NCBI GenBank assembly: GCA_000146045.2
Contig: BK006949.2
Span: forward strand, 512,001-576,000
Length of the DNA: 64,000 bases
From: TPA_inf: Saccharomyces
Lineage: Eukaryota
Direction of reading: 5' to 3'
Under the pieces are notes generated by a model that ran no database searches, was not told the origin of the DNA, and saw only the letters and a list, made by a program, of their open reading frames with translations. A program made the translations under genes and the position numbers. This document shows positions 2,511-59,378 of the stretch, piece after piece; the first letter of the stretch is position 1, and each line of letters begins with the position of its first letter.

Positions 2511-5075
<2,565 letters not shown>

Positions 5076-5266
5076 CTATAGTGATAATAAAAAAAGCGCT
5101 AAGGAGGTACTACTTGGATTAGATCACTCTTATGCGTATTATTACCCGCCAATGGGCCCTCTCGATATTGAGAAGATGAAGTAAGTTCGAGAAAAGATGT
5201 CTGATGTAAGCCGCTCTCTGGCCTCTATTTAAAAGTTCTTCCTGGATGAAACCCACTCGAAAGTTG

Positions 5267-5287
5267 GGTGTGTGCGTGTGTGTATGT
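5267..5287 (+). repeat. A short imperfect (TG)n dinucleotide repeat in the VTC3-CTF19 divergent intergenic region.
   Basis: The sequence reads gggtgtgtgcgtgtgtgtatg. Confidence 0.7.
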
Positions 5288-5290
5288 TTC

Positions 5291-5365
5291 CACGTTTCTG
5301 CCTTGTGCTTTCAAAATCGCATGCACGTGCTTGCGACTGCACTGTGTTGTATTAAGCCACGTGGG
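5291..5365. promoter_or_regulatory. A cluster of three Pho4-type E-boxes in the VTC3 upstream region: CACGTTT (5291-5297), CACGTG (5324-5329) and CACGTGGG (5358-5365), 270-345 bp upstream of the VTC3 ATG.
   Basis: The motifs are exact matches: CACGTGGG is the high-affinity UASp2 type and CACGTTT the PHO5 UASp1 type. VTC3 is a PHO-regulon polyphosphate gene. Cbf1 could also bind the CACGTG cores. Confidence 0.65.
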
Positions 5366-5565
5366 CCCTCGCACATTGAAAAAAAGAAAAGCTGTACAGG
5401 GAAAAATGTGCCAAGAAGTCCAAATACCAATAGCTGTGCAAGTTACTCATTAACATCCAAACCGTGAAGGTCACGGCATATATACTCTGGCGTTCTACTA
5501 TGTGGCCGGTAATGTAACCGGTAATGGTGACTATCTAATAGTTGGAGTCCGCCGAAAAATCAGAA

Positions 5566-5571
5566 ACGCGT
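5566..5571. promoter_or_regulatory. MCB (ACGCGT) 80 bp upstream of the CTF19 ATG.
   Basis: It is an exact MluI-box hexamer in a kinetochore-gene promoter. A single hexamer also occurs by chance, about 8 times per 64 kb. Confidence 0.4.
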
Positions 5572-5650
5572 AATTTAGACTTATATAAACAGCTATATAC
5601 CTTGGAGCTAGTGTGATCTTGTTGATACTAGGTCGGCAAAGAACGCAAAT

Positions 5651-8233: not shown

Positions 8234-8952
8234 TACCAAAAATGCTCACCGTTAATTATATCATACTTCTCTTCTCCTCTCGTAAAATCGTGCGCATGTT
8301 AAATAGCCGCCGAAACAGCAGATGCATGCCTGCAGGTCTGGGTGTACCCCCTGCCTGAGTGTTCCACCCAGGCCTCGCCGGAGGAAAATGCCACCGCACT
8401 CAAGTTCGCACAGAAACTACCGCATAAATTTATTCTAACCCGGAACTGACGTTTATCGTGATATGAACTTTGGGTATCTCCGATTACGAAACGACGCCAC
8501 CCCTCCTTCCCCAAAGCACCGAGAAAAGATTTTTTTTAAAACTGAACGCTGATTGACTTTACGTATTATTACCACTATGCATTATTGTTGTTTCTGTTGT
8601 GGTTGTTGCCAGTTGTAATCATATTCACATTGCGTTTTAGTCATAACCACCTTCCGGTATTCATCATTCGTATTGAATAACAATATTTATACCGCAAAAC
8701 ACTATACGGCAAGGCAACTGATTACACTTTGTTTACCTTATTTTTTTATTATTTATTTTTCTAGAAAGTATTGTTGTGTGGCTCTATCCTTATTACACCA
8801 TCTCTGCTTTGGCATTTCGCGTTGTTTCCTCTCACGGATTGCAGATTATTGTTCACCAGGTAATAATCACTGACTGGCGGCTATTTTCCTATTACACTCA
8901 TTATTCTTAAAATTTTCTTTTTCTATCTCTATTTTCTTTCTTTTCGTGTCTT

Positions 8953-8983
<31 letters not shown>

Positions 8984-9093
8984 TAGTAATAATAAAAATA
9001 GTAATAAATAAAGATGGATTTCTTTAATTTGAATAATAATAATAATAATAATAATACTACTACTACTACTACTACTACCAATAACAATAATAC

Positions 9094-9124
<31 letters not shown>

Positions 9125-9160
9125 CCTGCTAATAATACCAATAACAACAATAGCACAGGC
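8953..9160 (+). repeat. An (AAT)n / (AAC)/(ACT) trinucleotide microsatellite block running from the SWI1 5' flank (8953-9013) into its first approximately 50 codons, encoding poly-Asn/Thr.
   Basis: Runs of AATAATAAT..., ACTACTACT... and AATAAC... are visible in the sequence. The antisense strand yields the spurious poly-Leu/poly-Tyr ORFs in the track. Confidence 0.9.
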
Positions 9161-41626: not shown

Positions 41627-42328
41627 TCACAGTTGCCTCGTAATCCAAGAGGGATCCCAATACAACGCCTCTGCACCACCTTGATAATCAATCCACAATA
41701 AACCGTTAGCGACCATTTCATCAAGAGCAGATTTACTCCTAACAGCCTCCCATCCCAAGTTTGCCTTTAATAAAGAGATACTTGAGTAGCCCAGAATTGA
41801 GCATATTTCCAAAATCTTTGTTTGATCTGATGTCAACTCATTTGGAACACTTCGTAAAAACTTTTTGCCGCGAATTTGAAATATCTCAAAACACTCTAGG
41901 CTCTTTAGCATGTCGATAGATTTTTCCAAATCATCGAGTCCAACATTCAGCTTACGAAAATGCACCTTCTCCAACTCTTGAAAAGAAATGACGCCTCCAT
42001 TCATATCTTTAGTTTGCCGACAAATTTCTATAACTTTAAGACATACTTCATAATAAAAATCATTCACTGTAAATAAGTGCTTATCTCGATCAAATAAAGA
42101 TAGGGGATCAATCCCAATAGATGAGCACATATGCATGAATTTTGAGCGGAATTCAGGTGAAGCTTGAAGCTCGCTATTGTGTTTCTTGGCAAATTCTACC
42201 AGTCGTTCTTGGAATACCATTAATTGGTCCCTTAGTTCGACAGATTGCTTTTCAAGTATGGTTTTGTTTACGTCATTGTACTTTCCATCCTTCAACTCGT
42301 CAAAGGCTGCCAGTCCAAACTGTTTCAT
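41627..42328 (-). CDS. SNF8: ESCRT-II subunit Snf8 (Vps22), 233 aa.
   Basis: It has tandem winged-helix domains. The length is 233 aa. Confidence 0.9.
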   Translation of the reverse strand: MKQFGLAAFDELKDGKYNDVNKTILEKQSVELRDQLMVFQERLVEFAKKHNSELQASPEFRSKFMHMCSSIGIDPLSLFDRDKHLFTVNDFYYEVCLKVIEICRQTKDMNGGVISFQELEKVHFRKLNVGLDDLEKSIDMLKSLECFEIFQIRGKKFLRSVPNELTSDQTKILEICSILGYSSISLLKANLGWEAVRSKSALDEMVANGLLWIDYQGGAEALYWDPSWITRQL

Positions 42329-42577: not shown

Positions 42578-43729
<1,152 letters not shown>

Positions 43730-43956: not shown

Positions 43957-44071
43957 ATCACATGATATATTTTTTATTTTTAATTTTTTTTAATTATAAA
44001 AATAATTTTTTTCTTTAAATTAAACAAAAATAAAAAATTGTTTTTTGTTGGTTAAGATTTCCGAAAATAGA
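43957..44071. other. CEN16: Point centromere CEN16: CDEI ATCACATG (43957-43964), CDEII of about 81 bp that is more than 90 percent A+T (43965-44045), and CDEIII TGTTGGTTAAGATTTCCGAAAATAGAAA with the essential CCG at 44061-44063.
   Basis: The CDEI consensus is RTCACRTG. The AT-rich spacer has the canonical length. The CDEIII core TTCCGAA is flanked by TGT and AAA. The element lies in the intergenic gap between HAT1 and CIT3, where CEN16 maps. Confidence 0.9.
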
Positions 44072-44376
44072 AATATTATTCAGTTGAAAGACAAAAAAAC
44101 ATAAATATTTCTATGAGCAAACAATTTGAACAGAAAAATAAAATTGGGGAAGTGACACACCATGGTAGCGGTTCTAAAGCGAAATCGGCAAAGCGGCTAA
44201 ATAGCAGTTTTGATGACTTACTCCACACTGAAAATGGATGACCTTAAATAGGAGATAAAGCTTTTTCATCCCTATGTATTTAAGATGACTGGCTTGTCAA
44301 GCATTCTAATCATAAAAAAAAGATCGTATTTGATCAAGAATTTATACATAGACGCCGCTAAATAATTGAATACAAA

Positions 44377-45837
44377 ATGGTACAAAGGCTTCTACCGGGC
44401 GCACATATATGCAGAAGGTCCTTCAATTCGTCTGCAATTATAAAGTCTTCTGCATTGACTCTCAAGGAAGCATTAGAAAACGTGATACCTAAGAAAAGAG
44501 ATGCTGTGAAGAAATTGAAGGCCTGTTATGGCAGCACGTTTGTCGGACCGATTACCATTTCATCAGTTCTAGGTGGGATGAGAGGTAATCAGTCAATGTT
44601 TTGGCAAGGAACATCATTAGATCCCGAACATGGCATTAAATTTCAAGGTTTAACGATTGAAGAATGTCAAAATAGATTACCTAATACAGGTATTGATGGC
44701 GATAATTTCCTGCCAGAATCAATGTTATGGCTGTTGATGACAGGTGGTGTGCCAACTTTCCAGCAAGCTGCTTCTTTCAGGAAAGAATTGGCTATTCGTG
44801 GAAGGAAATTGCCACATTATACAGAGAAAGTTTTGTCAAGTTTACCCAAAGATATGCACCCTATGACCCAACTTGCAATTGGTTTAGCATCAATGAACAA
44901 AGGATCCCTCTTTGCTACAAACTACCAAAAGGGCCTCATAGGAAAGATGGAATTTTGGAAAGATACTCTTGAAGATTCGCTAAATTTAATTGCTTCACTC
45001 CCGCTGCTGACTGGGAGAATTTATTCGAACATTACAAATGAGGGACACCCATTAGGTCAATATAGTGAGGAGGTGGATTGGTGTACAAACATATGTTCCC
45101 TGCTCGGCATGACAAATGGAACGAACTCTTCTAATACATGCAACCTTACTTCCCAGCAATCCCTGGACTTCATAAACTTGATGCGGTTATATACCGGTAT
45201 ACATGTAGACCATGAAGGTGGTAATGTTTCTGCTCACACCACCCACTTGGTTGGAAGTGCGTTGAGTGACCCGTATCTCAGCTATTCATCTGGAATAATG
45301 GGATTAGCGGGTCCTTTGCATGGGTTAGCAGCACAAGAAGTAGTAAGGTTTCTCATAGAGATGAACTCTAATATTTCCAGCATTGCACGAGAACAAGAAA
45401 TCAAAGATTATCTTTGGAAAATTTTGAATTCAAACCGTGTGATCCCCGGTTATGGGCACGCAGTTTTGCGTAAACCGGATCCTCGATTTACAGCAATGCT
45501 TGAATTTGCGCAAAAGAGGCCTATTGAATTTGAGAACGACAAGAACGTTTTGTTGATGCAAAAATTGGCAGAAATAGCGCCTAAGGTTTTGTTGGAACAC
45601 GGAAAGAGTAAGAATCCATTTCCCAATGTTGACTCTGCATCGGGGATTTTGTTTTATCATTATGGAATCAGGGAATTATTATTCTTTACCGTCATTTTTG
45701 GGTGTTCAAGGGCCATGGGACCCTTGACACAACTTGTTTGGGATCGCATTCTAGGTTTACCAATTGAAAGGCCCAAGAGTTTGAACTTGGAGGGTCTGGA
45801 AGCACTTACCAAAGCAAGCAATGTTAACAAGTTGTAA
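44377..45837 (+). CDS. CIT3: Mitochondrial citrate / 2-methylcitrate synthase Cit3, 486 aa.
   Basis: The citrate synthase signature GYGHAVLR and a catalytic His/Asp context are present. The length is 486 aa. Confidence 0.94.
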   Translation: MVQRLLPGAHICRRSFNSSAIIKSSALTLKEALENVIPKKRDAVKKLKACYGSTFVGPITISSVLGGMRGNQSMFWQGTSLDPEHGIKFQGLTIEECQNRLPNTGIDGDNFLPESMLWLLMTGGVPTFQQAASFRKELAIRGRKLPHYTEKVLSSLPKDMHPMTQLAIGLASMNKGSLFATNYQKGLIGKMEFWKDTLEDSLNLIASLPLLTGRIYSNITNEGHPLGQYSEEVDWCTNICSLLGMTNGTNSSNTCNLTSQQSLDFINLMRLYTGIHVDHEGGNVSAHTTHLVGSALSDPYLSYSSGIMGLAGPLHGLAAQEVVRFLIEMNSNISSIAREQEIKDYLWKILNSNRVIPGYGHAVLRKPDPRFTAMLEFAQKRPIEFENDKNVLLMQKLAEIAPKVLLEHGKSKNPFPNVDSASGILFYHYGIRELLFFTVIFGCSRAMGPLTQLVWDRILGLPIERPKSLNLEGLEALTKASNVNKL

Positions 45838-46384
45838 CGCAGTTCCAATTTACAAGAATGCTTCGTTTGCTATTACAATATTGAAATATAAATAAAATTC
45901 CATACAGCATGTCTAATCATAGCTAATTTATACATATTCATCATGAAAACATATAGGGGAAAATATGGTCGGTTAACACACCTATCAAAAAATTATTCAG
46001 CAATTCCAATCTCGTTAGTAAAATATATTCTTATTTTTTTTTTTTTTCTCTGATTGTATTATTTCTGGAGTTTTGACTTATTTTTTTACCACATCGCGCT
46101 TTTCGTCCCCAATCTCTCTGATATATGATGCTGTCTATAGGTAGCCACTTCCCCGATGTCGGACCTCGGGCCGTTTACAAACTTTATTGAGATGACCTTA
46201 TTTCTCCACATTCTAGTCATTCAACTTTTACCCTCATATGTTTACCTTCACTAATGTGAAAGCATGACCAAAGAAAGTGTATAAGGTATATAAATCTGCC
46301 ATAATGTATGTATAACTTATTAGGACTTTCTCAAATAGTATTTTGGTATTTTCTACTGTTCTCTGATGATCGAGAGCAAACAGA

Positions 46385-47935
46385 ATGTTTTTAGCCAAAA
46401 ATCTAAAAAATAATAAAATCAAGGTATGCTTGCCTAAAAAGAAATTTGCTGCGCTGAGTACAGCGTCTATACAAACTAATGAAAGACCAAATCCAGATAA
46501 GGTTTTGAAGGACATCGCGAAATATGTCCATGAAACCCCATTAAAATCATCTTTGGCTCTAGATACAGCACGACTCTGTTTCCTTGATACTCTAGGCTGT
46601 GGCTTGGCGGCTTTGAAATTTAAGCAGGCTCAAAATATTATTAAACCAATTGTGCCAGGAACAATAGTTCCCAGTGGAACAAAAATATTGGGCACATCTT
46701 ACGTTATGGATCCAGTGAAGGGAGCTTTTGCCATTGGTACTCTAATACGTTGGTTAGATTACAATGACTGCTGGTTAGCTGCCGAGTGGGGGCACCCATC
46801 AGATAACCTTGGGGGAATTTTAGCTGTCGCGGATCACTTGTCCAGATTAAACAAGGCTACCCACGGAAAGAATGGAAAACAGTTTCTTGTTAAAGACGTA
46901 TTAGAGGCAATGATTAAAGCGCATGAAATCCAAGGTATTATAGCGCTCGAAAATTCTTTCAATAAAGTAGGTTTAGATCATGTGGTACTCGTGAAAGTAG
47001 CAACGGCTGGTGTTGTCTCGAAGATGCTGGGCCTGAGCCAGGAACAAACTATTGAAGCATTGTCACAAGCATTTGTAGACGGTCAATCACTGCGTACTTA
47101 CCGTCATGCCCCAAATACTGGATCTAGAAAGTCGTGGGCGGCGGGAGATGCAGTTTCGAGGGCTGTAAACTTGGCTTATTTAGTCAAAAATGCTAATGTT
47201 GGCACGATACCTTCAGTATTAACAGCTAGAACCTGGGGATTTTATGACGTTTTATTTAAGGGTAAACCTTTTTCATTCCAACAAAGATCAAAATATGATT
47301 CCTACGTCATGGAAAACGTTCTGTTCAAGATATCATTTCCTGCCGAATTCCATGCGCAAACTGCTGTAGAAGCTGCTGTAAAAGCATATAGGATTCTTGC
47401 CAAACAAGGGAAAACTTTTAAAGATATTAAATCGATCAGAATTAGAACTCAAGAGGCGGCAATGAGGATTATAGATAAATCCGGTCCTCTGTATAATTAT
47501 GCCGATAGGGATCATTGTATCCAGTACATGATCGCGGTTCCGCTGATTACTGGTAATCTCACAGCTACTGATTATTCGGATGAGGTCGCAAGAAATCCTG
47601 AGATCGATAACTTGAGATCGAAAATGTACTGTATCGAAGATACTCATCTCACTCAAAACTATCACGATCCTGATAAAAGGTCGATAGGAAACGCTCTTCT
47701 CATAGAGCTGAACGATGGGACGCAGTTGGATGAAATTTTTGTAGAGTACCCTGTTGGTCACAAATTTAGACGAGAGGAAGGAATACCATTACTAATGAAT
47801 AAATTTCAAAGGCATCTGCGCGAACATTTTGTAGAGAGCCCTGATAAAGTCGACCTTATAATGAAGGTAAGTTCAAAAACAAACTTTTTGAATATGCAAA
47901 TCGACAAATACATGGATTTGTTTACTGAGGGATGA
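46385..47935 (+). CDS. PDH1: Mitochondrial 2-methylcitrate dehydratase Pdh1, 516 aa, PrpD/MmgE family.
   Basis: It has the PrpD/MmgE fold. The length is 516 aa. It lies next to CIT3. Confidence 0.92.
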   Translation: MFLAKNLKNNKIKVCLPKKKFAALSTASIQTNERPNPDKVLKDIAKYVHETPLKSSLALDTARLCFLDTLGCGLAALKFKQAQNIIKPIVPGTIVPSGTKILGTSYVMDPVKGAFAIGTLIRWLDYNDCWLAAEWGHPSDNLGGILAVADHLSRLNKATHGKNGKQFLVKDVLEAMIKAHEIQGIIALENSFNKVGLDHVVLVKVATAGVVSKMLGLSQEQTIEALSQAFVDGQSLRTYRHAPNTGSRKSWAAGDAVSRAVNLAYLVKNANVGTIPSVLTARTWGFYDVLFKGKPFSFQQRSKYDSYVMENVLFKISFPAEFHAQTAVEAAVKAYRILAKQGKTFKDIKSIRIRTQEAAMRIIDKSGPLYNYADRDHCIQYMIAVPLITGNLTATDYSDEVARNPEIDNLRSKMYCIEDTHLTQNYHDPDKRSIGNALLIELNDGTQLDEIFVEYPVGHKFRREEGIPLLMNKFQRHLREHFVESPDKVDLIMKVSSKTNFLNMQIDKYMDLFTEG

Positions 47936-48197
47936 ATGGTTGGCTCTTTAAGAGCGAACGGCATGGTACCTACTTCAATTTTTAAAGACAAAAGGCGCCG
48001 TTTCGATAAACAAGAAATCACTTTCAAAACATAATTAAACCAAAGAACATGCGGTTTTCTAATTATGCTGGCTTAATTTTACTGGTATTTATCTACATAA
48101 TAATAACTATTAAAAAATTAAATAATTGGCTCTATTTATTTTTCTTTCTTCAACTTGCAAGAGTTCGTCAATTCATGGAAAAATACAAAAATAGAAA

Positions 48198-48289
48198 TGC
48201 GAATTCTGTGGATCGAACACAGGACCTCCAGATAACTTGACCGAAGTTTTTTCTTCAGTCTGGCGCTCTCCCAACTGAGCTAAATCCGC
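48198..48289 (-). tRNA. tF(GAA): tRNA-Phe (GAA) with a 19-nt intron after anticodon-loop position 37. The mature body on the minus strand is GCGGATTTAGCTCAGTTGGGAGAGCGCCAGACTGAAGA[intron]TCTGGAGGTCCTGTGTTCGATCCACAGAATTCGCA.
   Basis: The exon sequence is identical to yeast tRNA-Phe. The A box reads TAGCTCAGTTGGGA and the B box GGTTCGATCC. A T-run terminator follows on the minus strand. Confidence 0.95.
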
Positions 48290-48372
48290 TCAATTTCTAT
48301 GCTCTAACCACCTTAGCTAAAAACTCAATACAGGATTAGTTGATAAATGGGTGTTATCAACTCAATCCACAG

Positions 48373-48419
48373 TGTTGGAATCAGAGTCAGTTATCATCTT
48401 TGGGCTAGTATTATTGTAA
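48373..48419 (+). mobile_element. A 47-bp 5' fragment of a delta-like (Ty1/Ty2) LTR, TGTTGGAATCAGAGTCAGTTATCATC....
   Basis: It starts with the LTR terminal TGTTGGAAT and aligns to the first approximately 47 bp of delta. It is truncated by the next element. Confidence 0.6.
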
Positions 48420-49160
48420 GTGTTGGAATAAAAATTCTAAAATATCATCCATTTAGTAGTGTTCATATTACTAATATATCTGTTGGAATAAAAATCCACT
48501 ATCGTCTATCAACTAATAGTTATATTATCAATATATTATCATATACGGTGTTAAGATGATGACATAAGTTATGAGAAGCTGTCATCGAGGTTAGAGGAAG
48601 CTGAAGTGCAAGGATTGATAATGTAATAGGATAATGAAACATATAAAACGGAATGAGGAATATTCGTAATATTAGTATGTAGAAATATAGATTCCATTTT
48701 GAGGATTCCTATATCCTCGAGGAGAACTTCTAGTATATTCTGTATACCTAATATTATAGCCTTCATCAACAATGGAATCCCAACAATTATCTCAACATTC
48801 ACCCATTTCTCAATATCATCACGTGCGGTCTAAGAAGATGATATGAAGATTGAGAATAGTCATCAGGTGTAATGGAAGCTAATTGCAAGGATTGGTAATT
48901 TAGTAGGATGATGAATGACAGTCACATAAGATGAAAAGGAAAACAATAATGCCATTATATCGAGAATATCGATCTCTTCGTGGATTCTTCTCATAGAGAA
49001 ATTCTAGTATAATATATATACGAAATATTATGGCCTTTAACAACAATAAAATTCCAACAATTATCAACTAATTCGAACATCTCTTGACAATATACATTAT
49101 TAATTTTTACATTTCGACTTTCTTTGAATTAGGGACTGTCTCTCAATTCATCTCTTTCTC
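48420..49160 (+). mobile_element. An older diverged copia-type solo LTR, most likely Ty4 tau given its length of about 400 bp. It is split into 48420-48477 and 48813-about 49160 by the delta insertion. It begins TGTTGGAATAAAAATTC and ends ...CATCTCTTTCTCA.
   Basis: The sequence is continuous across the delta insertion when 48477 is joined to 48813. It is related to delta at roughly 70-75 percent identity. The terminal TGTTGG...TCTCA structure is present. The end coordinate is uncertain by about 20 bp. Confidence 0.65.
48478..48812 (+). mobile_element. Solo delta (Ty1/Ty2 LTR), 335 bp, TGTTGGAATAAAAATCCACTATCG...CACCCATTTCTCA, flanked by a 5-bp target-site duplication ATATC (48473-48477 and 48813-48817).
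   Basis: It is a full-length match to the delta consensus with TG...CA termini and a perfect 5-bp TSD. The dubious antisense ORF 48569-48802 lies inside it. Confidence 0.9.
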
Positions 49161-49503
49161 ATACAGAATATCACTTATCCTATATAACTTATATAAGATT
49201 AGAATCTAACTAGAGCGAGGAGAGCGGAAACTCGGATCAAAAGTGATTGTTTAAGTGTTTGTGCGTTTGTGCGGCTCATTAAGACAATAAGGTTTTGCTT
49301 TTGTATTCAATTTTGTGGGTTTTATAACGTATAAATGCGCTTCTTGAAAGCTTGTTAACGATTTTATCGTAAAGAAATAAATAAACTAAAGAATTGAGGA
49401 GACAATACTGTTTTGATAAATAAGCCCCAAAAATATTATAGGGCCGCAAGGAATAAATTTCATAATGCGCATATGCCCAGACTCCTCTGTTTCTTTCGAA
49501 GTT

Positions 49504-51768
49504 TTACACTAGACTTGAATTAAATAAAGTATTGGACATAAAACTCTCCGAATCATTGTTCGGGACGTTGTTCCCTTTAATTTTCATTTTCTCAATTTCA
49601 TAAAGAGCCGCATCAATGCTATCGAAGTACGGAGAATATGTCTCTCCTGCATCACTAAATGTGTTGCTAGTATTATTTTCGTTGTTATTTGCTTGCGCTC
49701 TTTCCACACTAGCAGCTACACCTGCTTTGAATAATCGCCTTCTTACTTTGTCATTTATAGATACATTGACAAGGTAAATAAAGACATTGCGCCTCTTGTA
49801 ACTAGTGATAATTTCCTCCAGCACTTGGGCGGCTGAAGAATCTATTGAGGTCATCCCACCTAAATCGAAAATGACATATTTTATGGAATCCTTCGAGCGA
49901 AGTGATTTCCTTCCAGGATGTATCTTAGACGAACCGTACCTCTCTATTCTGTCAAGTCTCTGTTTTAAATCTTCGCTGTTTGTAAATGTGAGAGGCTCAG
50001 GTATTCTAACAATCATGCATCCCTCGATTTCTTCTGTGCCCTCAACATCCAGAGAGTTCCTTTTCATGTTCATCATGTAGTCGTCAAGATTCGTAAAGTT
50101 CGACGTTCCCGCTACCCTAGCCAGAATTTGGATTCTTGACTTTGCTGAATGCTTTATAATATTTATAATTGAATAGACACATCCGATGCATATTCCTGCT
50201 TCGATTGAGTAAAATATTGTAGTGCAGAAGGTAACAGCAAAAACAAATAGTTCACTAAAGCCACCACATCGCAAATGGAACTTTATGTCGCCTGGCACTT
50301 CCTCTAATAAACTAATTCCGATGATGGTTGTTATGACGGATAAAACACAATTAGGAATATAATGTACGAATTGAAGAAGTAAATTCATTGTGATTAGGGT
50401 GATGACACCCATAAACACTCCCGACATTACGCTTTGTGCTCCTGATAGGGCGTTGATCTTGGATCTTCCATATCCGCCGAATGCGGGAAGAGCACCGAAT
50501 AATGAGATGACAATATTCATGAATCCTAAAGCTACTAGTTCTCTATTAGAGGAAACGGTAAGATTGTAAGTTGTTCCAAGAGATTTCGACGCGGTCGTAG
50601 ATTCAAAAAAACCCAACATTGCCACTATTAGAGATGCACTAAAAAGATCTGGTATTAGCTTACGTCTAGGACGAGTTAAAGGGTTTTTCAATTCATCAAA
50701 ATTGTCCATGCTAAAGTCGCCAATGATAGAAATACCATATCTGTGTTTTAAATTAAATTTCATGGAAATAAGAATAGTAACAATTACCACCAATAATATA
50801 TCTGGAAAAAATATTGCGCTCTTGTGATATTTCATTAATTTCCTCTTTAGTAGACGCGTTAAAAAGAGGACAATCAAGCAACATCCGCTGAATATTGCCG
50901 TTGGTATATGGTATTGTGCTGGTGCATAATCAATGAGGAAAAGTATTTTCTCGAAAGGGGTATGGTAGTGTTGAGGCAAGCTTACTAAAAATTTGTCTAG
51001 CTTTAATTCAGAAATCAAAGAGTTGATTATCATAACCAGTCCTACTGAACTTATGAAACCTCGTAGAAGTGCCTTGCTAAGAACATTTCCAAGGAAACCA
51101 AATCTGGAAATACCAGAAAAAAGTAGGATAGTGCCACTAACAAATGTTATTACTGTTGAAATATCAATTAGAGAAACATTTTCTTTATGTAGTGTTATAG
51201 ATTCGACTGCTTGTCCCACGACCAAGGAAATTGCACTTTCGGGCCCAACTATCATCTGAGGAACAGAACCTAAAATACCATAGACAAATGGGCTAATAGC
51301 CAAAGAATATAGTCCGCATAAAGGTGGGACATGTGCAATTGAAGTTGTGTACGATAGCGCAAGTGGTATCTGAAATGACGCTACTGAGATACCTGCGATT
51401 ACGTCGCCCCACAGTTTATTGAAAGTGTACTCAGGAAGCCATGAAAAGCAGGGCAGGTAATAAGGTAAAGTTTCAAACACTGTATTCTCATCAACGCTAT
51501 CATTATTGTTCGTATTACTTGTATTACTTGTATTATTTGTATTATTTGTATTATTGGTGCATCCTGATCTTGAGTTGTTGGGTGGGGGTACCCCAGTAGT
51601 TGAATTAGATGCTGCAATATAGGTCCTGCCTCGATTGGATGAATCCTTATCATAATCAAAATTGTCCGAGAAAGTGTCACGCTGGTCGACTGATCTTTTG
51701 AATCTTGGTGGAGCGGTAGAGGAATATGACATCCTTCCACGCCCCAATAACGAATTATTTGATGTCAT
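49504..51768 (-). CDS. Putative SulP/SLC26-family anion (sulfate) transporter YPR003C, 754 aa, with a C-terminal STAS domain.
   Basis: Its multi-TM core resembles Sul1/Sul2. The C-terminus carries a STAS domain. The N-terminus is N/S-rich. The length is 754 aa. Confidence 0.88.
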   Translation of the reverse strand: MTSNNSLLGRGRMSYSSTAPPRFKRSVDQRDTFSDNFDYDKDSSNRGRTYIAASNSTTGVPPPNNSRSGCTNNTNNTNNTSNTSNTNNNDSVDENTVFETLPYYLPCFSWLPEYTFNKLWGDVIAGISVASFQIPLALSYTTSIAHVPPLCGLYSLAISPFVYGILGSVPQMIVGPESAISLVVGQAVESITLHKENVSLIDISTVITFVSGTILLFSGISRFGFLGNVLSKALLRGFISSVGLVMIINSLISELKLDKFLVSLPQHYHTPFEKILFLIDYAPAQYHIPTAIFSGCCLIVLFLTRLLKRKLMKYHKSAIFFPDILLVVIVTILISMKFNLKHRYGISIIGDFSMDNFDELKNPLTRPRRKLIPDLFSASLIVAMLGFFESTTASKSLGTTYNLTVSSNRELVALGFMNIVISLFGALPAFGGYGRSKINALSGAQSVMSGVFMGVITLITMNLLLQFVHYIPNCVLSVITTIIGISLLEEVPGDIKFHLRCGGFSELFVFAVTFCTTIFYSIEAGICIGCVYSIINIIKHSAKSRIQILARVAGTSNFTNLDDYMMNMKRNSLDVEGTEEIEGCMIVRIPEPLTFTNSEDLKQRLDRIERYGSSKIHPGRKSLRSKDSIKYVIFDLGGMTSIDSSAAQVLEEIITSYKRRNVFIYLVNVSINDKVRRRLFKAGVAASVERAQANNNENNTSNTFSDAGETYSPYFDSIDAALYEIEKMKIKGNNVPNNDSESFMSNTLFNSSLV

Positions 51769-52006
51769 CCTATAATTGTTTCCGTAAGTTCTTGGAAATC
51801 ACTAGGAAGTTTGTGGAGTTATTGTTCTCCTCATATTCTCCCATCTGGAAGAACTCTATTATTCCTTTGCCATTTCTCGTAGTCTTTTATATTTAGTCCG
51901 CTTTACACCGAAAAGGTCATTTTTAAAAAGGCAAGAGAACTAGGAAAAGTAAAACGTGCCCCCTTCAAAGCGAAGAGATGAATATATTTAGAAGTTAAGA
52001 ATTTAT

Positions 52007-53041
52007 TTATTTATATTTACCAAGTTTTTCAGTTAGTTCAGGGACTATTTTGTAAAGATCCCCTTGCAACCCATAGTCAGCGACATTAAATATAGGGGCA
52101 TCAGGATCATTGTTAATGGCAACGATAACTTTCGAATCCTTCATTCCCGCTAAATGCTGAACTGCACCAGAAACGCCAATGGCTATATACAAATTTGGTG
52201 CGACTACCTTACCAGTCTGACCGATTTGTAGAGAATTATCACATAGTCCATTATCAACAGAAGCTCTTGTGGCACCTATAGCAGCGTGCAAAACATCTGC
52301 TAGCGGCGATAATAGCTTCTCAAATGTCTCCTTATCCTTGAGTGCCCTTCCACCAGTTACCACGTTCTGTGCAGAAGTAAGTTCAGGCCTTTCACTCTTG
52401 GTAAGAATAGTTTTAACCCAGGTAACATTTAAGTCACAAGGAGGAATATCAGTTCTCTTCTCAATGGTAACAGAATCCATACTACCCTCTGCAATTGGTG
52501 GAAAAGCTGATGCCCTAATAATCAACAGTTTTTTTTCTGCCTGGCATTCTATTGTAGAAATAATGTTACCTGCATAAATTGGCCTTATAAAGGTCTTAGG
52601 ATCTTTGATTACAGTAACCTCACAAACAGGTTGGACGTCCAAGAGCGCACCCACCCGAGGTAAAACACTTTTTCCAACAGAGGAGTTTGAGACAACAAAA
52701 TGTGAATAGTCGCCGCCTTTTAATAGTTTCACTAATAACGGAGTTAGTTGTTCGGGAAGACAGGTATCTAATTTTGAATCTTCAAATATGACAAGCTTTT
52801 CTAAATTGCTGCATGAATATGAAGATTTTAGCGCCTCAGCAGTTTTTTCAGCTTTGCTACCTGTGATTACAGCTGTGATAGGGTTAGACAACTTTTGTGC
52901 AGCAGCCAATAAACTCAATGATGACCTTGAAACAGAGCCATCTTTTGAGCTTTCAATGAAAGCTAAAGTGGAGGCGTAATTTTTCTGGAGGAACTTTGCC
53001 TTGCTAGCTCTAGGCAAGACAGCAGCCAATGATTTAAACAT
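52007..53041 (-). CDS. AIM45: Mitochondrial electron-transfer flavoprotein alpha subunit Aim45, 344 aa from the internal ATG (MFKSLAAVLPR).
   Basis: It has the ETF-alpha FAD-binding C-terminal domain (NNDPDAPIFNVADYGLQGDLYKIVPEL). The length is 344 aa after trimming four codons. Confidence 0.9.
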   Translation of the reverse strand: MFKSLAAVLPRASKAKFLQKNYASTLAFIESSKDGSVSRSSLSLLAAAQKLSNPITAVITGSKAEKTAEALKSSYSCSNLEKLVIFEDSKLDTCLPEQLTPLLVKLLKGGDYSHFVVSNSSVGKSVLPRVGALLDVQPVCEVTVIKDPKTFIRPIYAGNIISTIECQAEKKLLIIRASAFPPIAEGSMDSVTIEKRTDIPPCDLNVTWVKTILTKSERPELTSAQNVVTGGRALKDKETFEKLLSPLADVLHAAIGATRASVDNGLCDNSLQIGQTGKVVAPNLYIAIGVSGAVQHLAGMKDSKVIVAINNDPDAPIFNVADYGLQGDLYKIVPELTEKLGKYK

Positions 53042-53786
53042 AGAAATTAACAATTAGCTGCTTTACCGTTAATGGTAGTAAATTATATCACTAGATTTTG
53101 TTTGTTGATTATTTTAATTGTTTTTAATTTTTAGTTAGTAGATTTTCGTTCGAGGCCCTAAAAATGTACCGAAAAGTCATAATAAACGGGCGGAGTCACA
53201 TCGTAAGAGTAACATATACAATATGCGAGCAGACTTTGTCCATTAAGCCAAGTAACAACAAAAGAACCAAAAAAAGGAAAGTATCTCGTCTCTGTTGAGT
53301 AATTCTTATATCTTGCAAGATTTAATTCTCACTACTAATACGGAACTCAATCAAAGTGGCTTAATCCCAAGACATGCATTGAATACGGTATCATTGGCTG
53401 TTGACAGTTTAAGAAAAGTAGTTGTCACGTTCCTGAGGTTACTGGGGACAAGGGAAAGTAGATACTCGTCTTACGAAATTGGATATAGTTACTCTCTAAT
53501 GCTCAATCCATGTAAAGCATGAATCATCTCAACAGAAAAATCTGGGAGAGCATATTTGCAACAAAAGAATCCAAATATCAGTATATAATTATATAAGTGA
53601 GCTAAGAAGTGAACAAAAGAAAAGGAAGAGGGGAAAAATTTTGGCTGGACTTGTAGAACGATAGAACGAAAGAGTCCAAGGGGGAAGTAATAAAGTTATT
53701 GAACGAAACAACAAAAATTCGATGGAGATATTAACAAATGCATAGCAGCGCAGCTAACCGACCCGAAGCTAGTACCAACGAATTTT

Positions 53787-54671
53787 TCAACTATTCTGTG
53801 TTGATTGTCTCCTTTGCAACACCGAGCTCTTCAGTATTCTCAGCTGAAAGTTATTATTGAAATCACGTTGGGGACTTTCATGATCTAGTGGTCTTGGTGA
53901 GTAGCATTTAATATTTTGACCATTGAAAGGGCATCTCTCAATTGGAGAAAGGCCACTCTTAGGGATAGGCGTTTTAACAATCTGTTTATGGGATGAATGA
54001 TATATTTTTGAGGATGGATTCACGATACTGATATGTTTCCCGTCCGCATTATTCGGATATGTAGTGCCTTCTTTCGATAAAATAGATGCCAATCCTGGCG
54101 TATGCTTTGTTTCGATGACGGAGCTTACCAATTTTTCACTTCGTATTTTCGATGAGTTCTTATTTTTACATTTGACGTTCAATATTCCGACATACGTCTC
54201 TCTTTCTGAAATGTTGGAACTCTGTGGCCTTGGATTTGGTGTTTTTTCACCCGAAAAATTGTTGATAACTGCACTTTTCTTTGAGGTACTACTATTTATA
54301 TCTTCCTGCTCTTTTGTTCCCCGCTTAAGATGTTTTGGATGGCAAGTTTCAATAAACTGCGGTTTTATTCCTGCTTCTGAAGAGGTGCCCGAGATGTGAA
54401 CCTCATTTCCACCACTACCAGTATAAGTAAAGTAGTCCGTACCTTCTTTTCCAAAGTCATTTGAGGAATATACCAAAAAAACACCTTCCTTTACTTGAAA
54501 GCGATCCACGAATGGGAAAGTATCCCCTTCCGAAGTCACATCTGAGGGAACAAATTTTAAAACATATGAGATGTTGTTTTCATCCACGGCATCATAAAAT
54601 TTACAGCAATTATTCTCATACATCAAGTTTTTGAGAGTGTAGTCATGCAATCCTAAATCTTTGAAATGCAT
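53787..54671 (-). CDS. HAL1: Halotolerance protein Hal1, 294 aa.
   Basis: The length is 294 aa. It lies between AIM45 and ICL2. A CRE-like TTACGTAA sits in the upstream region. Confidence 0.85.
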   Translation of the reverse strand: MHFKDLGLHDYTLKNLMYENNCCKFYDAVDENNISYVLKFVPSDVTSEGDTFPFVDRFQVKEGVFLVYSSNDFGKEGTDYFTYTGSGGNEVHISGTSSEAGIKPQFIETCHPKHLKRGTKEQEDINSSTSKKSAVINNFSGEKTPNPRPQSSNISERETYVGILNVKCKNKNSSKIRSEKLVSSVIETKHTPGLASILSKEGTTYPNNADGKHISIVNPSSKIYHSSHKQIVKTPIPKSGLSPIERCPFNGQNIKCYSPRPLDHESPQRDFNNNFQLRILKSSVLQRRQSTQNS

Positions 54672-54885
54672 CTGATCTATTTGTTTCTGTATTTCTCTTT
54701 TCTTGAGTTATATAAACGGAATGATTAGTAGTTTGGCAGAATTTATAGCAAGTATTAAATAGTTGAATACCTCAATATTCTCCATAATAAACGCCATATC
54801 GTACATAAAGGCTAAAACAAGAATGCCTGATACCGTTCTGCTTTTTGTTTTATCTTTCCCTATATTTTCTTTCCCTTTTGATGCT

Positions 54886-54893
54886 TTACGTAA
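54886..54893. promoter_or_regulatory. CRE / ATF-CREB site TTACGTAA about 215 bp upstream of the HAL1 ATG. It is a candidate Sko1 repressor site.
   Basis: A perfect palindromic TTACGTAA lies in the HAL1 5' region. HAL1 is an established osmostress gene regulated through a CRE. Confidence 0.55.
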
Positions 54894-55268
54894 TTTTTCC
54901 CGGCATATGTGAGCTTCCTAATAGACTCTATTTTTATTTTTCCCTTTCAAAGTGCGAGAGAAATACACACAACCAGCCTACGCTTATTTTCACCCATACC
55001 GTCATACGCCATATGATATATAATGTGAAACAAACGCGGGGAAGAGCGCGACACGACAGCTTAGCAGGGGCATTCCACGCAACACCTGAAACTTTAAGTA
55101 AAACTGTTTCTGCGAGGATATCTTGGCAAAACAAACACTAACTTTCGAACTAAATATAGTGATCGTGGTCATAAATTAATAAAAAGAGGATAAATAGAGA
55201 TAAAAGAGATATGTGACTAAGTTGCTGGCAATATGTATTATTTATACTTTTATCTTCTTGAAGCGTAT

Positions 55269-56996
55269 TCAAAATTGCGTTTCGGTAAAGCTCTCACCAG
55301 ATGTACTTAAAGTTTGGGATGAAGCACCGTTTTGGACAACTTTCATTAAGGAATCAACATATTCTGCACCAGACCATAGCTGGTGTGTCATGATATCACA
55401 ATTAGTCTCCTTTTCCCGTTTTTGCACTTTTTCGACGTATGCTTTCATTCCGTCACTTTGGAAGCTATTGGCTAATTCCCAGAATGATACTCCATCTGAA
55501 TGCAGACCGGCAAGGGAAACCAGTTGCAACGTGAAGCCTTCTTTTGCCAAGTCCCATACGAAGGATTTTAATGCCTTATCATCAAAGCCGTGAGCGCTCC
55601 AATTGAAACTAGGAGATAAGTTATATACTAGCTTGGTAGCTGGAAGTTGTTTATGAATTTTTCTTGAAAATGAGCGTGCCTGCTCCAGGTCAGGAGTTTT
55701 CGTTTCCAGCCAAATCATATCAGAATATGGGGCAAACACCAAAGATCTTCTAATAGCTGCTTCAATACAACCGTTAAACATGTAATATCCCTCTTTGGTC
55801 CTCGGAGCATCCCAGTCAAATATAATTTTCTTTAGTGGTGTCACTTCTTGAGCTAAAAGTTTCATTTCTCTTAAGCTTAGGTATGCTCTACCCAGCTTGT
55901 TTACCATAAGGTCTTCCTTCTTTTCTTTATAGCTTTCAAACTCGCTTGCCGTAAACTGCTTTTCTAAGGCCTCTTCAAATGTAAACAGCTCATTTTCATG
56001 GTACCATTCTTTTTCCATGTCAGCAATGGCGGAGTTGGGAATTTTTTTGTCCTCCATCTCAATCAATTTTTCGCTCCAAGGCACCACGTTATCTCTTATT
56101 ATACCCCTAATGAATTCGTGGTCTCTCGGATCACTGCTTGAACTCAACAGCTTACCATTACAGGAATCTGTTCTTGCAATAACCAAATTTTCTGTCCCCA
56201 TGATATCCCATTGAAACCTGGTGGAAATCAATCTCATAAGATGTGTTGCTGTGGGCACCAAAACAGCCCCACTTAGATGGCCACACCTTTTGCCTCCCAC
56301 CATCTGATCTTCAAGATGAATACCAGCAGCCCCTTTCTCCGCAAACAACTTAGCAACTTTCATTACAGTCGTTGGGCCACCGTGACCCATGTCTGCGTCC
56401 GCGATAATTGGTTTTAAATAATCAACAGGAGTAGAACCTTTGATGGAGGCCTCCAAGAAAGCCTTTCGATCGTGCAATTGCTGCGCCTTGAATATTCTCT
56501 CCACTTGATTCGGCACAGTATCGTATGGATAATCGCCAAAATCCGGCGATACTTCATTTGTAGATCCAACTAATGTGGAAGAACAAGCCCAACCAGATAT
56601 GTAAGCAACTTTGATATTTCTGCAACGGGCCAACTGACTCATTTGTACAGGATCGATAACTCCCAACGTGTGAAGTGGAGTACCATTCTTGAAATTCTCT
56701 TCTAGTAAGTTGAACAGCTTTCGAGCTTGATAAGATGAAGGATAAATTGAAGTATTAGCAGGAAGGCTGCCCCGATGCTTTACAACATCCGTAGCTGAGT
56801 ATGGACGACTGATATTCTTAAATCTGGCTGATTCCCACCATTCTTCTACTTTACTTGATTCCGAGAACACGAAGTCTTTAGTACTGCTTGCCCCGTTGAA
56901 AGATCTTCGCAGTGACTTGTCTGATGACAAAACCAGCTTCTTCAGTGTTCCCGTAGTTTTTCTATTGAAAGTTTTGTTGTTAATCATTGTAATCAT
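55269..56996 (-). CDS. ICL2: Mitochondrial 2-methylisocitrate lyase Icl2, 575 aa.
   Basis: The isocitrate-lyase family signature reads GGKRCGHLSG, in a PEP-mutase/ICL barrel. The length is 575 aa. Confidence 0.93.
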   Translation of the reverse strand: MITMINNKTFNRKTTGTLKKLVLSSDKSLRRSFNGASSTKDFVFSESSKVEEWWESARFKNISRPYSATDVVKHRGSLPANTSIYPSSYQARKLFNLLEENFKNGTPLHTLGVIDPVQMSQLARCRNIKVAYISGWACSSTLVGSTNEVSPDFGDYPYDTVPNQVERIFKAQQLHDRKAFLEASIKGSTPVDYLKPIIADADMGHGGPTTVMKVAKLFAEKGAAGIHLEDQMVGGKRCGHLSGAVLVPTATHLMRLISTRFQWDIMGTENLVIARTDSCNGKLLSSSSDPRDHEFIRGIIRDNVVPWSEKLIEMEDKKIPNSAIADMEKEWYHENELFTFEEALEKQFTASEFESYKEKKEDLMVNKLGRAYLSLREMKLLAQEVTPLKKIIFDWDAPRTKEGYYMFNGCIEAAIRRSLVFAPYSDMIWLETKTPDLEQARSFSRKIHKQLPATKLVYNLSPSFNWSAHGFDDKALKSFVWDLAKEGFTLQLVSLAGLHSDGVSFWELANSFQSDGMKAYVEKVQKREKETNCDIMTHQLWSGAEYVDSLMKVVQNGASSQTLSTSGESFTETQF

Positions 56997-57335: not shown

Positions 57336-59378
57336 TCAGGCATATACAATTATTTCGTCCTCTCTTCTCAGTTTAAGATCTTTAGTTACCGCATCTGCAA
57401 CAGGATATTCGTTCAACTTGACCATCCCTTTCGTAGCCAAATTCAGTAAGGATAGGAAGGCACTGGCGGCTATCTGTCTGCTGACACCTCTTTCTACATC
57501 ATCAAAGTTAGCTCCCGTTTGAGCTTCGCCCATGCGGCTTGGGATGATGTCAACCAACAGCATCTTTCTCTTGAAAGGCGGATTGGAGCGCGTTGTTCTT
57601 CCGACAACAATTGATCTTTCTTTGATGTAATCGTAGAATTTTTTAGTTTGATAATCCAGAATGACGTCTTGAAAATTTGTTTTGTCCTGCTGCAAATTTT
57701 GCTGAGAGCCATCAGAAAAACAACTGTTGCTGGAATCGTCTTCCTCGGCAAAATTCTGTTCAGATGGCCCGACTCTCCTTCTGAGAGCACCAACTATATC
57801 TTCATTGAAACCACTAGACCTGGTTGAGTTTCTGGTATGACTTCTTCCAAAACTTGAAGGAGGTAGATTCAAATTAAAATCTAGGATGTTACCTTGAGAG
57901 TTTTCTTCAATATAGTGCCCATCTTCCAAATCCTCATTAATTTGTTCAAGGTTTAAAAGTAAATTATCATTTTCCATATCGGAAGAATAATTATCGTTCT
58001 TATTATTGCGAAAACTTTTCCTACCATATTCGTGACTTCTGGTACTACTTGAGCTTTGGGTTGATACTAAAGAATGTGCTCTTTTTCTCCCTCTTTCAAC
58101 TGAACTAAAACCTTGGGGATATAAGTCCCATTCGCTAGTCTTTATATTGGAAAAGTCGTTAAATATACTTAACCAATTTGTTGAAAAAAATTCTTCCTCA
58201 CCACATGACCTTACCAAACTACTTATGTTAGAGGTGAGAAAATTTTGGCCGGTTAGTTTTCTAATCCTGTTTTTTTCCATTAAGTGACTGTAATTTCCAT
58301 GGTTGAATTTGAGAACTTCATTTGGATAACTCGTTTTGGCATCAAATTGTACCTTAGAAAATTGCCCACCTACATCGGCGCGATGTCCTCTTTGCATTCT
58401 GGTGTTAAGTTTCTGTTGAAGATCGTTTTCTTCTTCAGAAGCCTGCGCTTCTAACCCCAATTCGTAGTCTTTGAGATTGGCTACCGGCCCTTCATTTTCA
58501 ACTGATGTATCTTCTCCTCCATTACTGTTATTTTCATTATCGTTCTCAAAATTCAACACCAATTCATCTCCTTGATAATTAAACTTGAAATCGTTTCCAT
58601 CCTTCTGTGAACTTGAGTGAGAGCCTAAAGGTGTCCCCTGATGGCTCACTATATCATCTAAGTCCAGGTTAAAGTCCACATCAACGGGAATTTCATCCAG
58701 CGGAAAAGAATTTCTAACGTTAGATCCTAGATTACTTTGCGCGTCTGAGTTAGTCATGTCCCCATGAAGCTCGAACCTGTTAGAATTACTTAACTCATTG
58801 ATGTAGTCTTGTCTCCTTATTGATTTAGCTTCCTCAATAAAAGATACATTATCTTGGAGAGTAGTGTTAAGAAACTCCAGTGCGGGAACTTTAGTAATAT
58901 CATATAAGGGATCGTCATCGAAAAAAACGCATTCTTCCCAGGTGTAATTATTGTTTTTGTTTCCTATAATACTGTTATTACTATTCAATCCATTAATCCT
59001 CGTAGACTTATTTTTGGCCTTAAAAGCGTATACATCATTTTTTTGTAACTGCACAAGCAGGTGATTTAGGTCATTCAACACATACTCGGTTTTTTTATTA
59101 TAGCAAATTGTCACTCCATATAAAAGATTAGAAATGTATCTAAGAGAAAAATCATTTTCGAAATTTTGAATTTCATCACATGTTTTTGGTATGGAAATAT
59201 TTACGATGTCTTTTTTCTTAACGGTGGATGAAGATATGTTTCCAGTGGAGTTGCTTTTGTTTGAATAATAATTGTTACTTTCCTTTACAATGGAATTTCC
59301 CAACGCAGAAAGCAACCACACTGTTGTGAGGCCCTTATATTTCTTGTCATCTTTAAAGTTCAACGAAAGAGGTGCCAT
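57336..59378 (-). CDS. REC8: Meiosis-specific cohesin kleisin subunit Rec8, 680 aa.
   Basis: It has the N-terminal kleisin (Rad21/Rec8) domain and a C-terminal winged-helix domain. The length is 680 aa. URS1 and MCB motifs lie upstream. Confidence 0.9.
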   Translation of the reverse strand: MAPLSLNFKDDKKYKGLTTVWLLSALGNSIVKESNNYYSNKSNSTGNISSSTVKKKDIVNISIPKTCDEIQNFENDFSLRYISNLLYGVTICYNKKTEYVLNDLNHLLVQLQKNDVYAFKAKNKSTRINGLNSNNSIIGNKNNNYTWEECVFFDDDPLYDITKVPALEFLNTTLQDNVSFIEEAKSIRRQDYINELSNSNRFELHGDMTNSDAQSNLGSNVRNSFPLDEIPVDVDFNLDLDDIVSHQGTPLGSHSSSQKDGNDFKFNYQGDELVLNFENDNENNSNGGEDTSVENEGPVANLKDYELGLEAQASEEENDLQQKLNTRMQRGHRADVGGQFSKVQFDAKTSYPNEVLKFNHGNYSHLMEKNRIRKLTGQNFLTSNISSLVRSCGEEEFFSTNWLSIFNDFSNIKTSEWDLYPQGFSSVERGRKRAHSLVSTQSSSSTRSHEYGRKSFRNNKNDNYSSDMENDNLLLNLEQINEDLEDGHYIEENSQGNILDFNLNLPPSSFGRSHTRNSTRSSGFNEDIVGALRRRVGPSEQNFAEEDDSSNSCFSDGSQQNLQQDKTNFQDVILDYQTKKFYDYIKERSIVVGRTTRSNPPFKRKMLLVDIIPSRMGEAQTGANFDDVERGVSRQIAASAFLSLLNLATKGMVKLNEYPVADAVTKDLKLRREDEIIVYA

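Follow-up and report, generated by a model that had tools for sequence, protein, structure and literature searches.

The methylcitrate-cycle genes beside CEN16 of Saccharomyces cerevisiae: a conserved CIT3-PDH1 pair with a loosely linked ICL2, probably a form of an old fungal gene cluster

We analysed a 64-kb stretch of S. cerevisiae chromosome XVI spanning the centromere CEN16 (the window; positions are counted from its first letter), in which three genes of the methylcitrate cycle, CIT3, PDH1 and ICL2, lie close together. With a probability that we put at about 75%, this locus is the S. cerevisiae form of a long-established fungal cluster of primary-metabolism genes serving the methylcitrate cycle, which detoxifies propionyl-CoA. 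It can be summed up as a CIT3-PDH1 pair that has been conserved and an ICL2 that is only loosely linked to it, an eroded version of that old cluster. Conserved primary-metabolism gene clusters are rare in budding yeast and serve as test cases for ideas about co-regulation, toxic intermediates and linkage. The locus offers a clean contrast in this respect: the pair that brackets the toxic 2-methylcitrate is almost never split, whereas the third gene drifts freely, a pattern more in keeping with a role of toxic intermediates than with one of low recombination.

CIT3 (YPR001W, 44377-45837, + strand) encodes a mitochondrial citrate/2-methylcitrate synthase (Pfam Citrate_synt, 1.6e-85), PDH1 (YPR002W, 46385-47935, + strand) a probable 2-methylcitrate dehydratase of the PrpD family (Pfam MmgE_PrpD_N and MmgE_PrpD_C), and ICL2 (YPR006C, 55269-56996, - strand) a mitochondrial 2-methylisocitrate lyase (Pfam ICL, 5e-167). 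A named-sequence look-up returned exact S288C matches for seven proteins, Cit3p, Pdh1p, YPR003C, Hal1p, Icl2p, Rec8p and Haa1p. The identities and coordinates that an initial annotation of the window had given to the three genes were correct, being confirmed by the open reading frames (ORFs), the Pfam domains and these matches. The solved structure closest to CIT3 is the 2-methylcitrate synthase of Aspergillus fumigatus (486 bits, citrate synthases reaching at most 434 bits), and database source names make Cit3 a dual citrate/methylcitrate synthase. PDH1 matches the solved 2-methylcitrate dehydratase structures 1szq/5mvi, which we take to be E. coli PrpD, with E = 4e-183. ICL2 is closest to 8z1r (565 bits, with ICL1-type structures at 458 bits or less), and it is named methylisocitrate lyase in the database sources. 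Three unrelated Pfam families (Citrate_synt, MmgE_PrpD and ICL) are present at the locus, indicating non-homologous enzymes of one pathway. The cycle proceeds from synthase to dehydratase, then to aconitase, which hydrates 2-methyl-cis-aconitate, and finally to lyase. Because the aconitase step intervenes, the three genes represent steps 1, 2 and 4 and not, as had been claimed, three consecutive steps. A Pfam scan of 10 ORFs together with the ORF list revealed no aconitase-family gene between 40 and 64 kb of the window; the hydration is carried out by aconitase supplied from elsewhere in the genome.

As the initial annotation stated, the three genes lie within 12.6 kb just right of CEN16: they span 12,620 bp, and the CIT3 start codon is 303 bp from the end of the centromere. 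CIT3 and PDH1 are adjacent and co-oriented with a spacer of 547 bp. The gap of 7.3 kb between PDH1 and ICL2 contains three unrelated protein genes, a tRNA gene and two remnants resembling long terminal repeats (LTRs). In a genome of 12.07 Mb, three specified genes would fall inside 12,620 bp with a probability of 3.3e-6 (1.7e-6 when counted by gene order). Even allowing for a few hundred pathways, the grouping is not a coincidence of random placement, and the question becomes one of history.

CIT3-PDH1 is a deeply conserved adjacent pair, with a linkage that has outlasted the surrounding synteny. We examined DNA fetched around PDH1 and ICL2 orthologues, plus locus-tag numbering, in about 20 species. 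Direct reading of the DNA showed the two genes to be adjacent in Zygosaccharomyces rouxii, in Nakaseomyces bracarensis and in the assembly GCA_900180425.1, which we believe to be a Kazachstania and which would then postdate the whole-genome duplication (WGD). Consecutive locus tags were found in Vanderwaltozyma polyspora (Kpol_354p5/p6), Tetrapisispora blattae (0C05230/40), T. phaffii (0P00490/500), Kazachstania africana (0B01840/50), Eremothecium gossypii (AGR002W/003W), S. mikatae and Wickerhamomyces mucosus. Z. rouxii and GCA_900180425.1 have the order DEG1-SNF8-HAT1-LOC1-CIT3-PDH1-NIC96-YPI1-RPN11-(zf-UBP/UCH gene)-(M24 peptidase gene), and E. cymbalariae has the same order except for CIT3. 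Judging by position and systematic names, we take LOC1 and the last five genes (NIC96 to the M24 peptidase gene) to be YFR001W-YFR006W of S. cerevisiae chromosome VI; the ancestral region therefore interleaved the present CEN16 and CEN6 neighbourhoods. Among the Saccharomycetaceae checked, the exceptions to adjacency are K. naganishii, with one gene between, Naumovozyma dairenensis, with five, and E. cymbalariae, in which CIT3 appears to be a decayed pseudogene beside an intact PDH1; E. gossypii retains CIT3 (AGR002W). The 1.9-kb gap between LOC1 and PDH1 in E. cymbalariae (8076-10000 of locus L002) lacks an ORF longer than 150 residues, and tblastn gives three weak CIT3 fragments in it, colinear and on the same strand (residues 185-302, 282-313 and 429-454; E = 0.003-0.02).

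Outside the Saccharomycetaceae, the adjacency of a citrate synthase (CS) gene and a PrpD gene extends to Wickerhamomyces. In Cyberlindnera fabianii, CS is followed by PrpD in the same orientation, and the flanking genes, for S-adenosylmethionine synthetase and a proteasome ATPase, are unrelated to those of S. cerevisiae. In Babjeviella inositovora the pair is divergently oriented, again with unrelated flanks. The citrate synthases of both species are of the methylcitrate-synthase type, scoring 77-88 bits above the best citrate synthase. In Babjeviella all three genes are contiguous, with the isocitrate lyase (ICL) gene at 4971-6659 (+), CS at 6890-8368 (-) and PrpD at 10001-11488 (+) of locus L009; its ICL is 57% identical to ICL2 and has the same best structural match. 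In Lipomyces starkeyi an ICL2-type gene (7338-9142) lies directly upstream of PrpD (at 10001). All three genes of Paracoccidioides fall inside about 22 kb, mcl being next to mcs and mcd following after six or seven unrelated genes (PMC7324963, 2020), and in Kluyveromyces marxianus CIT3 and PDH1 are adjacent with ICL2 nearby, all three being strongly co-induced (PMC5773181, 2018). All three pairwise adjacencies thus recur in distant ascomycetes, which is most simply read as the outcome of rearrangement and erosion in an old cluster of three genes.

Synteny in relatives, which the initial annotation proposed as a check, held for CIT3-PDH1 nearly throughout and often did not hold for ICL2, which is loosely linked. 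The N. bracarensis order is HAT1-CIT3-PDH1-NIC96-RPN11-SAD1-like-M24-YPR003C-AIM45-HAL1-ICL2-REC8-HAA1, where a stretch of 14.2 kb with at least seven genes separates PDH1 from ICL2. The S. cerevisiae order is the same minus the chromosome-VI-type genes, the gap being halved from 14.2 to 7.3 kb, and the tRNA gene and LTR-like repeats occupy the slot of the N. bracarensis NIC96, RPN11, SAD1-like and M24 peptidase genes. The closeness of PDH1 and ICL2 in S. cerevisiae is therefore most simply a by-product of the post-WGD loss of NIC96 through YFR006W. In GCA_900180425.1, the other side of CIT3-PDH1 carries, 21.6 kb off, a REC8-ICL2-HAL1-AIM45-YPR003C block, and in K. africana and K. naganishii ICL2 is, by its locus tag, 8-9 genes away from CIT3 on that same side, which is consistent with one pericentric inversion. 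In Kluyveromyces lactis, ICL2 is on the same chromosome, and both CIT3 and PDH1 are absent within 10 kb of it. Estimates of how far ICL2 lay from the pair before the WGD differ with the species used: about 60 genes from E. gossypii, about 17 from Torulaspora (locus tags of two different strains) and at least seven from N. bracarensis.

Several observations weigh against an old cluster of three genes. ICL2 lies on a different chromosome from CIT3-PDH1 in N. dairenensis (0B vs 0C) and T. phaffii (0P vs 0H), on a different scaffold in V. polyspora, about 470 locus-tag steps away in T. blattae, and, in E. gossypii, on the other arm at a distance of about 60 genes (AGL057W vs AGR003W); in Sugiyamaella, Ascoidea and W. 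ciferrii it is on another scaffold. Neither CS nor ICL was found within 10 kb of PrpD in Tuber and Coprinellus. Gene order and orientation vary among lineages, so the groupings may have been assembled independently, and the sample was picked by availability. The S. cerevisiae ICL2 promoter also lacks ATGACCT, the core of the candidate promoter element described below. Moreover, neutral reciprocal loss after WGD leaves two linked units on one and the same daughter chromosome in about half of cases, and the same-track and split outcomes for ICL2 in the post-WGD species sampled look roughly even, as such loss predicts. No sign of active upkeep of ICL2 linkage was seen within the Saccharomycetaceae among the species sampled, and linkage of ICL2 beyond synteny is seen only in some lineages, namely Babjeviella, Lipomyces, Nakaseomyces and Kazachstania.

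These outcomes raise the alternative that the linkage is a historical accident with no selection on clustering. The 547-bp spacer between CIT3 and PDH1, lying next to a centromere, would offer few viable breakpoints, and neutral post-WGD deletions would have brought ICL2 near. The loss of ICL2 linkage in roughly half of the sampled post-WGD lineages would be expected on this account, the loss of NIC96 through YFR006W accounts for the compaction, and present at the junction are a tRNA gene and solo-LTR-like repeats, such as typically mark places of rearrangement. However, the CS-PrpD pair has been kept in Cyberlindnera and Babjeviella, where every flanking gene is different and the centromere context of the Saccharomycetaceae is absent. 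The ICL-CS, CS-PrpD and ICL-PrpD pairings all recur in distant lineages, and two given genes are adjacent by chance at a rate of only about 3e-4 per genome. We consider a purely neutral relic unlikely.

We favour the eroded old cluster, for which the following course of events may be proposed. Cit3 produces 2-methylcitrate and Pdh1 consumes it, and the pair has stayed together while its surroundings were extensively reshuffled, probably by selection acting through the toxicity of 2-methylcitrate. ICL2 would be the loosely linked third member, probably a remnant of an ancestral contiguous ICL-CS-PrpD arrangement still seen in Babjeviella, and a single ancestral cluster would underlie the present forms. 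In the lineage leading to S. cerevisiae, ICL2 would once have lain about eight genes from PDH1; after the WGD, the chromosome XVI copy would have lost NIC96, YPI1, RPN11, SAD1 and YFR006W, all kept on chromosome VI, which would have halved the distance.

The position beside the centromere suggests another explanation. CEN16 is a point centromere at about 43957-44073, between HAT1 and CIT3, consisting of CDEI (ATCACATG), an 81-bp CDEII of 96% A+T, and CDEIII (TGTTGGTTAAGATTTCCGAAAATAGAAA), which contains TTCCGAA. Crossovers are suppressed for about 20 kb and double-strand breaks (DSBs) for about 3 kb on each side of a centromere (PMC4749563). The cluster, at 0.3-12.9 kb from CEN16, lies wholly in the crossover-suppressed zone, and CIT3 with most of PDH1 is in the DSB-suppressed zone. 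The initial annotation had proposed that low pericentromeric recombination would keep the alleles linked, and one could suppose that the cluster is located here because a crossover-poor region holds co-adapted CIT3, PDH1 and ICL2 alleles together. The suppression itself is borne out (PMC4749563), the order HAT1-CEN-(LOC1)-CIT3-PDH1 is kept in the Saccharomycetaceae, and the spacers of Z. rouxii and N. bracarensis contain TTCCGAA, resembling CDEIII. As an explanation of the cluster the proposal fails. The centromere cannot explain its origin, because outgroup clusters have entirely different neighbours: the cluster occurs among unrelated genes in Cyberlindnera, Babjeviella, Lipomyces and Paracoccidioides, and so predates such a centromere context and does not need it. 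ICL2 departed in several species while CIT3-PDH1 stayed put, a distance of 12.6 kb is tight linkage anywhere in the genome, and no evidence of co-adapted alleles was found. Low recombination explains neither origin nor maintenance, adding at most slightly to the linkage already given by 12.6 kb, and we regard the suggestion that it is the reason for the cluster as improbable.

The grouping also resembles the bacterial prpBCD(E) operon, which serves the same pathway with its three activities together; PrpD is a close homologue of Pdh1, and the prpC-prpD order mirrors CIT3-PDH1. A metagenome scan with PDH1, considered as a source of more fungal loci, yielded almost only apparently bacterial loci because PrpD is so conserved. 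We infer that the 80 loci obtained (G+C mostly 0.5-0.7) are bacterial prp operons, and they were kept as a comparison. Their PrpD is 58-64% identical to PDH1, about as close as the distant fungal orthologues (62-72% outside the Saccharomycetaceae), which would imply either that the protein is extremely conserved or that the fungal gene came from bacteria relatively recently. In 48 of the 55 loci with room upstream, prpC is directly upstream of prpD. Descent of the yeast cluster from a horizontally acquired prpBCD operon could be proposed on this basis, and on the close match of PDH1 to the solved dehydratase structures (E = 4e-183, as above). However, orthology to the bacterial proteins is close for PDH1 alone. 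The PrpC-like protein shares only 22-29% identity with CIT3; the PrpB-like protein shares 26-31% with ICL2, a match that in most loci covers about 120-245 residues. CIT3 groups with eukaryotic mitochondrial citrate/methylcitrate synthases and ICL2 with fungal isocitrate lyases. Bacterial prp genes are transcribed together as a polycistronic operon that usually has its own regulator, whereas in yeast each gene has a promoter to itself and both strands are used. They do not constitute a single polycistronic unit, since ICL2 is on the opposite strand and the gaps are 547 bp and 7.3 kb, the latter with unrelated genes. Considering that CIT3 and ICL2 are eukaryotic citrate synthase and isocitrate lyase paralogues and not PrpC and PrpB orthologues, the resemblance is convergent and not inherited from an operon, and we judge operon transfer very improbable.

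Published data show that CIT3, PDH1 and ICL2 are co-regulated. The protein levels of all three in colonies depend on mitochondrial retrograde (RTG) signalling (PMC8198273), the three genes are jointly repressed under tellurite (PMC6089990) and respond jointly to oxygen supply (PMC3930817), and in K. marxianus on xylose they are induced 294-, 32- and 28-fold (PMC4912071). The initial annotation would have called the cluster coincidental had the genes been dispersed in related yeasts or not co-regulated; the CIT3-PDH1 pair is neither, given its conserved adjacency and this published co-regulation. Co-expression would operate through shared trans-acting factors on separate promoters, with no common transcript, and CIT3 and PDH1 would respond to the same signals, glucose derepression and RTG signalling.

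A search for shared promoter motifs, which had also been proposed, succeeded for two of the three genes. The exact 10-mer GATGACCTTA occurs just twice in the window, in the CIT3 promoter (44237-44246, + strand, -140 from the ATG) and the PDH1 promoter (46191-46200, + strand, -194 from the ATG), in the same orientation relative to the gene. When 19 promoters of CIT3, PDH1 and ICL2 orthologues, taken from nine species, were scanned for 7-mers without bias, its core, ATGACCT, was the top word, present in 10 promoters vs 1.6 expected (P = 5e-7, or about 4e-3 after correction for 8,192 words). It occurs 13 times in 14.3 kb of promoters vs 9 times in the 63.5 kb of intergenic sequence that served as control at those loci, a 6.4-fold enrichment (P = 2.4e-7). 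Most of the promoters that carry it are those of CIT3; two are PDH1 promoters, and the ICL2 promoters of N. bracarensis and K. lactis also carry the word. GGGG-type words, Mig1- or Adr1-like, rank next. We regard GATGACCTTA as a candidate shared promoter element with a putative function. The R box of Rtg1/Rtg3 is GGTCAC, and GGTCAT, within the reverse complement of ATGACCT, is one base away from it, which would fit the RTG dependence. A further-reaching proposal is that the contiguous ICL-CS-PrpD cluster existed in the ancestor of the budding yeasts, possibly of the Ascomycota, and was held together for hundreds of millions of years by 2-methylcitrate toxicity, with (G)ATGACCT(T) as its cis-element; this is rather doubtful, and we put it forward tentatively.

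None of the other sites sought, including the carbon source-responsive element (CSRE), the oleate response element (ORE), the HAP CCAAT box, GGTCAC and the Gcn4, Leu3 and Hap1 sites, was common to all three S. cerevisiae promoters. The Adr1 half-site TTGGRG occurs once per promoter, at -222 to -278, which is close to chance expectation. CGGGCCG, common to the PDH1 (-225) and ICL2 (-261) promoters, was found in no orthologue and was taken as chance. We also considered YPR003C as a fourth member of the regulon, as its promoter contains ATGACCT (51914-51920, - strand, at -146), and rejected it: the word overlaps a published weak Zap1 site (PMC2535606) and is missing from the orthologous promoters of N. 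bracarensis and GCA_900180425.1. The YPR003C copy is followed by AAAGCGGACTAAATA, which is similar to AAAGCGGCTAAATA in the CIT3 promoter (about 44195-44208). AIM45 was rejected as a pathway member, having no motif, no literature link and no co-occurrence in outgroup clusters. Nothing was found that ties either AIM45 or YPR003C to the pathway.

Among other linked pathways, GAL1-GAL10-GAL7 and DAL are similar in that non-homologous genes of one pathway are linked and co-regulated in trans, with a toxic intermediate proposed as the selective agent. However, GAL and DAL are contiguous, whereas just two of the three genes are adjacent here, and DAL was assembled recently by relocation, whereas the methylcitrate cluster appears old and decaying. 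K. marxianus and Paracoccidioides have the same three enzyme genes, and Paracoccidioides shares the loose architecture with interspersed genes, although its adjacent pair is mcl-mcs and not mcs-mcd. Unlike theirs, the S. cerevisiae cluster abuts a point centromere and has been compacted by post-WGD gene loss. In the fungal maleidride/alkylcitrate biosynthetic clusters (PMC8851701), a citrate-synthase-family gene is likewise paired with a 2-methylcitrate-dehydratase-family gene, but these are secondary-metabolite clusters of filamentous fungi built from diverged paralogues, in contrast to the primary-metabolism enzymes considered here. The co-localisation itself is already known, having been published for K. 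marxianus (PMC5773181, 2018) and Paracoccidioides (PMC7324963, 2020), and the S. cerevisiae map has been available to all since the genome was sequenced. The present analysis adds the history of compaction in S. cerevisiae, the contiguous Babjeviella cluster, the Lipomyces ICL-PrpD pair and the candidate shared promoter element. The account of the S. cerevisiae spacing and the promoter element leave the known picture of the pathway unchanged. The primary description of ICL2 is reportedly that of Luttik et al. (2000), which may have noted that ICL2 lies near CIT3 and PDH1.

The remaining features of the region are as follows. On the far side of CEN16 lie SNF8 (41627-42328, - strand) and HAT1 (42605-43729, + strand). 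The initial annotation correctly placed AIM45 and the transporter gene YPR003C between PDH1 and ICL2 and overlooked HAL1, the tRNA gene and the LTR-like repeats. PDH1 and YPR003C are tail-to-tail, and the spacer of 1.57 kb between them is filled by the tRNA gene and the two repeats. The tRNA gene (48198-48289, - strand) contains an intron and was detected with Rfam RF00005 (56.7 bits) and missed by ARAGORN. The repeats, two diverged tandem solo-LTR-like elements at about 48480-49090 that start with TGTTGGAATA, are direct repeats with a spacing of 274-277 bp and an identity of 76-86%; from the appearance of their sequence, we take them to be probable LTRs (Ty delta). YPR003C (49504-51768, - strand) encodes a SulP-family anion transporter (Pfam Sulfate_transp and STAS), and AIM45 (52007-53041, - strand) the alpha subunit of an electron-transfer flavoprotein (Pfam ETF and ETF_alpha; 344 residues from the ATG at 53041). 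HAL1 (53787-54671, - strand), for the halotolerance protein, was identified by its exact match to S288C Hal1p and has no Pfam domain.

Beyond ICL2 lie REC8 (57336-59378, - strand) and HAA1 (61018-63102, + strand), which encodes a copper-fist transcription factor. HAA1 is two genes away from ICL2, and the REC8-HAA1 surroundings of ICL2 are kept in N. bracarensis. HAA1 drives adaptation to acetic and propionic acid, and the presence of a propionate-stress regulator beside genes of propionyl-CoA catabolism may be a coincidence. By systematic name, all three citrate synthase genes of S. cerevisiae are centromere-proximal: CIT3 is YPR001W, CIT1 is YNR001C and CIT2 is YCR005C. CIT1 and CIT2 are a WGD pair, so there are two independent centromere-adjacent placements of citrate synthase paralogues. 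YNR001C is given as a citrate synthase gene in PMC4912071. The prose of that paper swaps the systematic names, writing 'CIT3 (YNR001C)' and 'CIT1 gene (YPR001W)', and its Table 1 is correct, with CIT3 as YPR001W.

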